Assembly (NCBI GenBank): GCA_951406725.2
Contig: OX597821.1
Span: 11,966,001-12,030,000 of the forward strand
DNA length: 64,000 nucleotides
Source of the DNA: Octopus vulgaris
Lineage: Eukaryota
Direction of reading: 5' to 3'
Shown here: positions 13,717 through 60,256 of the stretch, piece by piece
Numbering within the stretch: the first letter of the stretch is position 1
Layout of the letters: each line of letters starts with the position of its first letter
Position numbers and translations under genes: made by a program
Notes under the pieces: model-generated
Database searches by the model: none
What the model saw: only the letters and a program-made list of their open reading frames with translations
What the model was told of the DNA's origin: nothing

Positions 13717-13754
13717 TCTTTTACGTTTCGAGCCCACGCTCTTCGACAGAAAGA
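13717..13754 (-). ncRNA. Minimal hammerhead-like motif (A6 changed to U) in a pLTR-like repeat at about 13630-13818
   Basis: TCTTT-CTGTCGA-A-GAGC-GTGG-GCTC-GAAA-CG-TA-AAAGA. Related to 41995-42029 and to the truncated copy at 46522-46549. Confidence 0.6.
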
Positions 13755-36755: not shown

Positions 36756-37159
36756 TATTTATTTATTGCCGACAGGGGGGCTAAACATAGAGGGGACAAA
36801 CAACGACAAGAAAGGGATTAAGTCGATTACATCGACCCTAGTGCGTAACTGGTACTTATTTAATCGACCCCGAAAGGATGAAAGGCAAAGTCGACCTCGG
36901 TGGAATTTGAACTCAGAACGTAACGGCAGACGAAATACCTATACAAGGGGCTAAACACAGAGAGGACAAACAAGGACAGACAAACGGATTAAGTCGATTA
37001 TATCGACCCCAGTGCGTAACTGGTACTTATTTAATCGACTCCGAAAGGATGAAAGGCAAAGTCGACCTAAGCGGAATTTGAACTCAGAACGTAGCGGCAG
37101 ACGAAATACCCTTAGGCATTTCGCCCAGCGTGCTAACGATTCTACTTGCTCGCCGCTCT
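36756..37159 (-). mobile_element. SINE family B with internal tandem duplication and 16-bp TSD
   Basis: TSD aaaatggagaaatact at 36740-36755 and 37160-37175. Body duplicated at about 36770-36940 and 36944-37110. Confidence 0.9.
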
Positions 37160-38052: not shown

Positions 38053-38216
<164 letters not shown>

Positions 38217-40713: not shown

Positions 40714-41363
40714 GTATATCTATCTATCTATTTATCTGTCTATATATATATATATATATATATACATACACACACATATATCTATATTTATATATATTTT
40801 CATTCAAAACTTGACTACCTTCTTTTTCTCCGTATACATATACATATATATATATGTGTGTGTATGCAAATTATATATATGTATGTTTGTATGTATGTAT
40901 GTATGTATATACGTATATATGTGTGAGTGTCTGCCTGTCTGTACAAAAGTGAGAAAGAGCAAGAGAGAGAGTGAGAGAGAAGGAGAGATAGTGATACATA
41001 TCGGGTAGGGGAGTTTGTGAATGATTATGTAATACTCTCTAATAGGCTTATCTGAGGCTTTATCTTTCCTTACAGATAATGGTATTGGATATTATTGAAA
41101 TGGTTTCTCGGTCGCTTAATCGAGACATATTGAACATGTTTCAGTTCGTAACTTCAAGATAACAACATATTTGTCATTTGTATAGTTTCTTTATCGTTGA
41201 CAGCACTAAGCTATTTCGTGTGTTATCTGATTGCAGGTGGTTGGACTGAAAAAATTAGAAAGAATATTTGTTTCAAAATATATAGTGTTTCCACAGATTT
41301 GATTAGCCTAGAGTTTGGAAAACAGTAGGTCTCACTGAAACACCTATCGATATATATATATAT

Positions 41364-41953
41364 AAATTTTAAAATAGGATAAAATCTTAATAAGAAATTA
41401 TCAAGTAGTTAGCGTGAAAAACCTCATAAATCAAAAAAATCTGTAAATTTTTTTCACTTGAAAATATTTATTTATATTATATAGAGGGCATTATTACACA
41501 TAAATGCCACACGCTAGGAGGGACTTTTAAAGTCATAACTACCAAAAATAAACAAATCGTACCGAATGCAATTCTCGAAGCGAGATATTTAAAAACAGAA
41601 TTTAGCTCCCGATCACCTGTGATTTCGCAATTAACGTATTATCTACGTCTCCTACTCGTCAGTGAAGCGAATTCAAAATAGATCATGAATGAACAAAATC
41701 AACATACCAGACAGAACCAGGCGGACAACCGGCGCCTCCATCGTAGCATATGGAACTGTTCACCCTTCATATATTTATGTAAATGGCGGGCTTTTTCGAA
41801 TTGTATTTCGGTAACAACGTGCTTCTTCGGAACAAATTTGAAAATAGGATAAAATCTTATTAAGAAATGATCAAGTAGATAGCGTGAAAAACCTCATAAG
41901 ACAAAAAAATCTGTAAATTTTTTTCACTTGAAAATATTTATTTATATTATATA
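41364..41953 (-). mobile_element. ORF-less HHR-containing element: 470-bp unit plus 120-bp terminal direct repeat (retrozyme-like or non-autonomous PLE)
   Basis: 41364-41483 is repeated at 41834-41953 (offset 470). Flanked by (TA)n on both sides; HHR at 41605-41668. Confidence 0.75.
41605..41668 (-). ncRNA. Type I hammerhead ribozyme, canonical core
   Basis: GCTTCA-CTGACGA-GTAG..ACGTA-GATAA-TACGT..TTGC-GAAA-TCAC-AG-GTGA-TC-GGGAGC; AUC site, near-palindromic helix III. Confidence 0.8.
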
Positions 41954-41994
41954 TATATATATATATATATATTCATATATATATATAAATATAT

Positions 41995-42029
41995 GTTTCT
42001 GACGAAGAGCTCCGCTCGAAACGTAAAGC
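41995..42029 (+). ncRNA. Minimal hammerhead ribozyme motif in a pLTR-like fragment (41995-42110)
   Basis: GTTT-CTGACGA-A-GAGC-TCC-GCTC-GAAA-CG-TA-AAGC. Confidence 0.75.
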
Positions 42030-42111
42030 CCTCCTTCTTCCCTTCCTTCCTGAGCGTCCAATAATACTATATTTGTTCCACGTCCTCGCGTTGTTGTGTT
42101 TTCATGTTTGG

Positions 42112-59034: not shown

Positions 59035-60256
59035 TTTGACGAAACATCACGGCATATTTTGCTGGGTATGTATGAAATATCAGATGTCCACAACCAGCAG
59101 AAAAGGTGAATCTTGTTTACTGATCATGCTTCAAGAACTCTGCGAAGAATTCTTGCAGTTTCAAGCAATCCGGATTTTTGTTGACGTTCTACCATTATAT
59201 TTGTACCAATTTTTGAGCCATGTTAGTAGTTGCATGCTGATACTTTCTGGTGGGCCAATGACTATTGGTCCCACGTCTATTCTCCTCATTGACCACATCC
59301 ATCATATTTCCCAATTCAAATCGTCATAGTTGTTCAGGTTTTCTTATTTTTCTTTGATCTTGTTGTCGCCAGGACATGCCATTCCGATTGTAATGCAGGT
59401 CCTTTCTGCTTTTTTGTCTTCACTACATCATCATCATCATTGTTCGACCGTGGTCGAGACAATGGAATTTACCATGCTACGCCAGACTTCACGGTCCATC
59501 ATGGCATTACGGAGGTCCTGTTGCTGGGTGCCTGTATCCCTGGAGATTACATCAGGGTAGGAGAGTGTGCGCCCTCTGGTATTGCGAGTAGATGGCTTCC
59601 ACAGGAGAAGTGTAGAAATTGCTTCGTTTTCAGCCCTACAACAATGTCCAGCAAACTGGACTCTCTTACCTTTCACAAGAGATGACACAGGTGGTAGTTT
59701 CCCATATATTTGCACTTTCGTTGGATGACGCTTCCACGAGAGATTTTCAGCTCTCATAAGGAGGCGAGTGTAGATTCCACCCAACCGCCTCTCAAGCTTC
59801 TTTGATAACGTCCAGGTTTCTGAGCCATATAGTAGAATTGGTTCGACTGTGGCTTTGAAGATTTCAAATCTAAGTAGAGACTTCAAACTTGAAATCTTCA
59901 AAGTCTTCACTACAACAATGTCCAGTATAGGATATCTGGTCAGGTGATCGTACAGAGTCATTGAAGCCCATAGGATTTTGTATTTTCATTCCCAGTGACT
60001 CCTTCTGGGGTATGATCATACCATGTCTTTGTCCTTTGTAGGCCGTGATTTCCACTGAGTCTCACTGGATCATTCTTGCCGCATAGTCATTTTCTCTTTT
60101 GTATTGGTGTTGTGTCAATTTCGGTCATTCGCTAACGATGTGCCATACGGTTTCACCCCGCTCTCACTACACATTCTGCGTTAGTCGCTGTCGGTATTGT
60201 TATCGATTCTGTATTTCACATAGCTGGTCTTTTACGTTTGTTCTTGAGCTGCGCAT
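59035..60256 (-). mobile_element. R4/Dong-like non-LTR retrotransposon 3' fragment (zinc knuckle plus REL endonuclease), split by an RTE insertion
   Basis: Minus strand: CAAQEQ..KTSYVKYRID..RMC, KILW..M...DHLTR...DIVVV | KKAERTC..IGMACPGDNKI, W.MWSM, PIVIG, LLETARILRRVLEA*. Confidence 0.85.
59428..59902 (-). mobile_element. 5'-truncated RTE-type LINE with (TGA)n tail and 12-bp TSD
   Basis: IFKATVEPILLYGSETWTL...QFAGHCCR...DREVWR. TSD gtcttcactaca at 59416-59427 and 59903-59914. Confidence 0.92.

Follow-up and report, generated by a model that had tools for sequence, protein, structure and literature searches.

A hammerhead-bearing, retrozyme-like repeat of Octopus vulgaris and its resemblance to Penelope-like insertions

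Hammerhead-bearing elements and layout of the octopus locus

Small non-coding repeats carrying a hammerhead ribozyme (HHR) represent a kind of element already known, and the link between retrozymes and Penelope-like elements (PLEs) is already in print. Retrozymes are reported as pLTR-derived in a preprint (Li, Clavereau & Pollet 2026, 10.64898/2026.07.22.740005), the available text of which gives a unit range of 51-972 bp, many dispersed solo monomers and cleavage in one of nine dimers tested. Metazoan retrozymes are described as having less than 50% GC (PMC7229834). It has also been hypothesized in published work that greater-than-unit cDNAs and insertions arise from circles (PMC4209133; PMC7761336). 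With respect to PLEs, PAc of the anole cuts AT-rich DNA in vitro and initiates reverse transcription (RT) at two internal sites downstream of the HHR, while uncut RNA is inserted equally well, so that HHR cleavage is not needed (PMC11167929). Partial tandems, optional tails and (TA)n targets are additional PLE traits (PMC8557442; PMC3846280). The annotation of O. vulgaris includes 190 Penelope-like families, corresponding to 6.83% of the genome, with no mention of ribozymes in its available portion (PMC13282606). A literature search limited to openly accessible sources returned no description of a cephalopod retrozyme.

The window analyzed here is a 64,000-nt stretch of O. vulgaris DNA (contig OX597821.1, positions 11,966,001 to 12,030,000), in which the element is a 590-nt insert (41364-41953) between (TA)n tracts. 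The features of the locus are the following:

41020-41339, no strand: left flank, single-copy, outside the element; its 320 nt occur unchanged in DNA runs X1 and X2
41350-41363, no strand: (AT)7 tract, presumably the left portion of the TA target, adjoining the 3' end of the element
41364-41483, minus strand: R1, the last 120 nt at the 3' end of the element, read in hammerhead sense
41364, minus strand: site B, the 3' end of this copy, 247 nt downstream of the cut
41456-41484, minus strand: site A, AT-only tract where R meets U; the same tract is where R2 has its right end
41484-41833, minus strand: U, the 350-nt unrepeated body, 40% GC, non-coding, containing the ribozyme
41598-41674, minus strand: type I hammerhead with complete core, extended helix I, long bulged helix II and helix III of 4-5 bp
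41611/41610, minus strand: predicted cleavage site, after AUC
41834-41953, minus strand: R2, second copy of the 3' end, lying upstream, truncated at its 5' side and pseudo-LTR-like, without ribozyme
41954-41994, no strand: imperfect (TA)n tract, right part of the target; the period-2 array spans 41934-41994
41995-42111, plus strand: adjacent unrelated Penelope-type 3' end, with a minimal hammerhead at 41999-42025, 86 nt and then (TA)n; inverted, head-to-head

The original prediction of a 120-bp direct repeat at offset 470 holds, since R1 and R2 measure 120 nt each and are 95% identical, differing by six substitutions and no indels (BLAST E 1.5e-50). No further copy of R was found in the 64-kb window. 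The (TA)n sequence that had been noticed on both flanks is also confirmed, and with such flanks, at which the flank contigs end, the target-site duplication is unreadable. The window as a whole is rich in TA microsatellites, with 125 tandem-repeat rows and 128 runs of (TA)6 or more. Family contig depth is high up to 41364 and at single-copy level to the left of it.

As also predicted, the element has no open reading frame of note. The longest frame beginning with ATG has 55 aa, stop-to-stop frames reach 83 aa on the plus and 64 aa on the minus strand, and no frame of the element matched Pfam; the 1-nt indels occurring among family copies were counted together with this absence of coding capacity. 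Among the 107 frames of the window, Pfam returned no RT or GIY-YIG match, the lone match (OATP) being sub-threshold and discarded. The 64-aa frame crosses the R2/U joint; of the protein searches meant to find that joint in other copies, one gave no candidate and another a single match (P0001), which was rejected as chance, being weak, 20 residues long and added up from about 20 repeats within an unrelated NCBI protein. The 470-nt unit has 34% GC. In the flank identical in X1 and X2, 41060-41156 (plus strand) contains a polypyrimidine tract with AG, after which come a frame of 28 codons and a stop, with no Pfam match; this may be a terminal exon, in which case the element would lie within or close to a 3' UTR.

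The repeat family and its hammerhead

Part of the stretch is contained in 20 of the 24 runs listed, none of which holds more than 0.37 of its words, and no run containing the stretch is recorded as RNA. The contigs of four runs were placed on 41020-41833 at 80% likeness. The flank 41020-41339 showed depths of 39.5 (X1) and 24.6 (X2) with no differences, and the element drew 1,973, 2,280, 817 and 83 contigs in the four runs. Its summed depth, which is not a copy number, was 46-8,687 times that of the single-copy flank in X1 and 122-31,142 times in X2. The family was present in contigs of three labelled organisms, and 61-66% of the placed contigs were less than 95% alike. On account of these contig counts, depths and divergence, the family is large, old and very high-copy. 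Scans with short patterns found no loci in metagenome contigs, viral contigs or prokaryote genomes.

Divergence was further assessed in 32 listed pieces out of 5,211, long pieces being biased towards diverged copies. Subtracting two flank pieces and nine pieces that start at 41473 or later leaves 21 that touch R; among these listed pieces, the median difference from the 41364-41953 copy is 14%, and one of the 21 differs by 5% or less. R1 and R2 are 5% apart and thus both derive from one close lineage. The private letters of the copy at 41610, 41652 and 41681 have nearly zero depth in X1 and X2 while the flank is identical over 320 nt, which hints at a polymorphic insertion, contigs being unable to prove absence. 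Family depth climbs again at 41776-41831. The depth profile was also considered as proof of truncation at the cut site and was rejected, because depth tracks the divergence of the copy from the family. In run X9, guessed to be RNA, diverged family pieces cover approximately 41377-41647 and two of them cross the cut site; such contigs are blind to ends, strand and circles and were given no weight as evidence.

The core of the hammerhead consists of CUGACGA (41662-41656), GAAA (41626-41623) and the cleavage triplet AUC, with C17 at 41611 (minus strand). Helix I comprises 6 bp plus a 5-bp extension (41598-41674), and helix II comprises 4 bp, a 3x3 loop and 5 bp. The motif therefore conforms to the hammerhead core CUGANGA / GAAA / NUH with three helices, helix I being open. 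A core-plus-helix scan fired in 3 of 5,000 dinucleotide shuffles of the element, and over the whole window it gave two real matches against none in 20 window shuffles. Free folding of the ribozyme alone was no better than that of shuffles (z -0.8 to -1.0), hence the motif rests on the core-plus-helix scan. Rfam gave no match in the window at the gathering score and no hammerhead at E<=10 either; the 12 weak matches seen at E<=10 were irrelevant. The intact-core HHR noticed on the minus strand is confirmed, the lack of an Rfam match being one qualification and the state of this copy another. Here the innermost pair of helix I (2.1/1.1, at 41663/41610) remains unformed, with A·G mismatched, and the active fold, at -13.6 kcal/mol, lies 3.4 kcal/mol above the minimum-energy fold of -17.0. 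Such a mismatch in the innermost helix I pair would be expected to slow hammerhead cleavage. Our literature search found no paper on the effects of a helix I mismatch.

Common family variants put this decay in perspective. In each of the four runs, 99.8% or more of the family depth carries A at 41610 (U in the RNA), so that the A-U pair at the cut is restored. At 41654 the family turns the U·G of the 41364-41953 copy into C-G, and at 41652 its G·U into A-U, both being helix II wobbles of that copy and both replaced at 97-100% in three runs. N7 (41658), a free position, varies in the family, and the conserved core bases are untouched among the variant rows listed (40 of 97). Helix pairing is accordingly conserved across copies, with three pairs restored; among the same 40 of 97 rows, a variant at 41645 (6-39%) counts against this, as it breaks a helix II pair unless its partner compensates. 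A C-G/U-A swap is possible at 41667/41606, although unphased. The predicted hammerhead fold is thus retained in the family. Since the variants common in the family repair the three weak pairs of the 41364-41953 copy, including the A·G at the cut site, the ribozyme of this copy, decayed at those pairs, is probably impaired, and the copy is probably a dead fossil. A loose end of X2 at 41650 points to a subfamily that keeps helix I and the core (N7 = U) and has a different helix II.

Overall, the shuffle scan and the high-copy contig family agree with the prediction of a mobile, non-coding, hammerhead-bearing family as opposed to a chance or one-off structure. In addition, the hammerhead is closer to the canonical class of retrozymes than to the minimal one found in metazoan autonomous PLEs.

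Ends, tandem joints and neighbouring insertions

R was found to continue into U across 41483/41484, with at least 31 letters on each side, in 10 of the 21 R-touching pieces among those listed. Since R bridges into U in other copies, R is the normal 3' sequence of the family and R2 is a 5'-truncated upstream copy. Loose ends were studied in 24 listed rows out of 442. On the left side, where ten rows are listed, TA-type letters occur at 41464-41478 (site A) in 54 of 62 contigs. Among the rows listed, right-side (5') departures are scattered. Record 11 of X2 departs from the element at 41532 with 347 unlike letters beyond, and the loose ends at 41420 and 41631 appear by eye to be unrelated sequence or microsatellite.

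Two joints of X2 go back within the element, from 41571 to 41464 and from 41797 to 41469, in one contig each, corresponding to head-to-tail periods of about 114 and 338. The joint from 41833 to 41364 expected for a 470-nt period is absent from the joint listing, which leaves out the repeat at 41340-41376 with the three joints there, where this joint would fall. Two or more tandem units with a hammerhead each were not found at the locus, which holds one hammerhead in 590 nt. Other joints in family contigs omit 75-170 nt, and these suggest internally deleted variants.

At the locus, the 3' end forms a partial tandem whose upstream copy is 5'-truncated, and the family exhibits defined 3' ends at AT-rich targets with variable 5' ends (among the rows listed, 41340-41376 being left out); both are footprints of the PLE type. 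Read from the sequence, the pattern of ends and joints is that of target-primed insertion of the Penelope-like type, in which RT starts internally and jumps between templates. PLE-type mobilization, as originally proposed, fits the TA targeting and the 5' truncation. Among the rows listed, the 3' ends of family copies cluster at defined places and are not randomly permuted.

Additional hammerheads are present in the vicinity. The one at 41999-42025 (plus strand), about 45 nt to the right of the element and absent from the earlier prediction, matches the minimal consensus, with an extra base after A9 and a palindromic ACGU helix III, as given in the supplement of PMC4209133. The end to which it belongs (41995-42111) shows no sequence similarity to the element and is probably a separate insertion into the same TA tract. 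It recalls the inverted 5'-truncated partner of PLE insertions, yet belongs to another family; co-integration is possible. A third intact type I hammerhead was located at 38466-38434 (minus strand), 219 nt upstream of a TA tract ((TA)n near 38214), with a 33-nt palindrome just upstream and a sequence unrelated to the element. Two copies of another PLE-type end, 81% alike over 129 nt, lie near 13750 and 46550 (both minus strand); they have a degenerate core, are related to the 41999 motif and each stop at a TA-rich tract.

The window also contains two tandem 171-nt copies of a SINE-like repeat (36777-37110, 92%), which we take to be an octopus-type SINE; ARAGORN found no tRNA genes, including at this repeat. 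Finally, a 182-aa frame at 59437-59985 (minus strand) has no Pfam match and presumably resembles the C-terminal part of a non-LTR retrotransposon ORF.

Possible routes of insertion and comparison with described systems

In our view there is an even chance that 41364-41953 represents an old member of a high-copy family of retrozyme-like, non-autonomous Penelope passengers and arose from linear RNA or by template jump. On this reading, the family would be moved by the GIY-YIG endonuclease/RT of an autonomous Penelope-like element. The PLE endonuclease would nick the (TA)n tract, and RT would start at a defined internal site downstream of the ribozyme, namely site B (41364) in this copy. In many other copies, whose ends are observed, the start may lie at site A (approximately 41456-41484), as the mechanism of PAc suggests. 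After 470 nt had been copied, the 3' end would be re-entered via linear read-through RNA of a tandem parent or, alternatively, by a jump back to site B of a sister RNA, jumps with other periods being observed. Copying may then have gone on for 120 nt and ended at the AT-only tract, for which microhomology might allow annealing to the TA target. Some observations weigh against this passenger reading. The U-to-R joint 41833/41834 is neither seen nor excluded elsewhere, as 41340-41376 was left out of the listing, and no partner PLE ORF is present in the window (no RT or GIY-YIG among 107 frames). Furthermore, the (TA)n of site A may have arisen by expansion of a microsatellite inside the element and not mark a start site, the distance between sites A and B is about 100-120 nt compared with the published 30-40 nt 'tail', and the 41645 variant breaks a helix II pair unless compensated.

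A different origin, which we consider rather doubtful, is that the insert represents the 3' end (pseudo-LTR) of an autonomous PLE, of which a 5'-truncated copy broke at 41833, where a single jump led back to the 3' start already used, the 470 spacing being private to the locus. Hammerhead-bearing ends of the PLE type are indeed common in the window (intact cores at 41999 on the plus and 38466 on the minus strand, degenerate ones near 13750 and 46550), and the other tandem joints have private periods. Furthermore, 19, 24 and 11 contigs overrun the ends of the compared stretch, the 11 of X7 necessarily at 41833, and record 8 of X1 departs at 41824 with 84 further letters. However, the hammerhead is unlike the minimal metazoan type, having no extra base after A9, a 6-bp extended helix I and a helix III of 4-5 bp, and the one long frame upstream of the ribozyme (the one searched out of three) lacks a real homologue. 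It is more difficult still to account for the structure by an ordinary insertion followed by DNA-level local duplication and deletion aided by AT tracts, with no special RT event. R1 and R2 resemble each other more than they do most of the family pieces listed and the 128 runs of (TA)6 or more would offer suitable tracts, but a 470-nt duplication and a 350-nt loss ending exactly at the 3' end of the family would be needed, and similar head-to-tail joints exist in other copies; this course of events is thus highly improbable.

The original prediction explained the insert of about 1.25 unit lengths by reverse transcription around a 470-nt circle or by a template jump. The template-jump or linear route is the better supported of the two. 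The length itself does not diagnose a circle, because an ordinary partial-tandem PLE footprint gives it and the PLE enzyme needs no hammerhead cleavage. With only one ribozyme, the 41364-41953 locus would be unable to excise a unit-length circle alone, and a circle would need master loci with two ribozymes, none of which was seen. A true non-LTR retrozyme with a fixed 470-nt unit, in which multimeric master loci yield hammerhead-cut monomers and circles that RT copies 1.25 times round, is a reading we judge unlikely. It draws on the canonical-like type I hammerhead, whose pairing is conserved in the family, and on a unit size and 34% GC within the reported ranges (51-972 bp; less than 50% GC). 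Compared with shuffles, the predicted circle has a somewhat better fold (z -2.2; one of 60 as low), but it is 65% paired compared with 62% for the shuffles and so not strongly self-paired. Similarly, the depth climb at 41776-41831 is expected if U runs into R, but is equally explained by the many differences of the copy from the family at 41636-41775. Neither a 470-period joint (41340-41376 left out) nor a two-ribozyme array was seen, the observed joints having periods of about 114 and 338. Moreover, a monomeric circle gives identical R1 and R2 at insertion, so that all six differences must be later mutations. In its widest form, the proposal is of a retrozyme family with thousands of copies, probably cephalopod, with an unusual long bulged helix II and a 470-nt circular RNA made at master loci, inserted by a Penelope-like RT into TA microsatellites from two fixed internal sites 100-120 nt apart and past unit length. 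Taken as a whole, this proposal seems improbable to us.

The value of the family lies in its use as test material. Being very abundant and having ends that can be mapped, it could tell a circular intermediate from a linear or template-jump one and reveal whether the 'two start sites' signature of PLEs can extend over about 100-120 nt. If the circle route were true, the dispersed copies would provide a genome-wide record for testing whether animal retrozymes transpose from circles, which has so far only been proposed.

As far as the available portions of the cited papers allow, the element may be compared with three groups. It resembles the non-LTR retrozymes of metazoans, among them the 350-390-bp Mytilus units (Cervera & de la Pena 2020, PMC7229834), in being non-coding, below 50% GC and high-copy with a unit of a few hundred bases, in its type I hammerhead with a 6-bp helix I and a 4-bp helix II base, and in its co-occurrence with minimal hammerheads of the PLE type. 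It differs from them in that its locus has one ribozyme and no head-to-tail full-unit array, an internal loop and 5 further bp lengthen its helix II, its helix III has 4-5 bp compared with the 1-2 bp usual in animals, and it sits in (TA)n where target duplication is unreadable.

The element also shares with the partial tandems of EN+ PLEs (Penelope/Poseidon and Neptune; PAc, Frangieh et al. 2024, PMC11167929; Craig et al. 2021, PMC8557442) an upstream repeat of the 3' end that is truncated at its 5' side, a sense hammerhead near the 3' end with defined 3' ends past the cut, and AT-rich or (TA)n targets with two alternative 3' ends. Unlike those PLEs, it has no RT or GIY-YIG ORF, its repeated part is devoid of a ribozyme, its ribozyme is not of the minimal dimer-dependent type, and its 3' ends are about 100-120 nt apart compared with 30-40. 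The extra base after A9 and the 1-2 bp palindromic helix III of the minimal metazoan PLE hammerhead (consensus in the supplement of PMC4209133) are likewise lacking. Finally, as a short non-autonomous unit with pLTR-type structure, the element is similar to the pLTR-derived retrozyme monomers and dimers (10.64898/2026.07.22.740005) and to non-autonomous Chlamys elements, e.g. MRC1 (PMC8557442); most Chlamys elements are described as being without canonical hammerheads, whereas the octopus element carries one.
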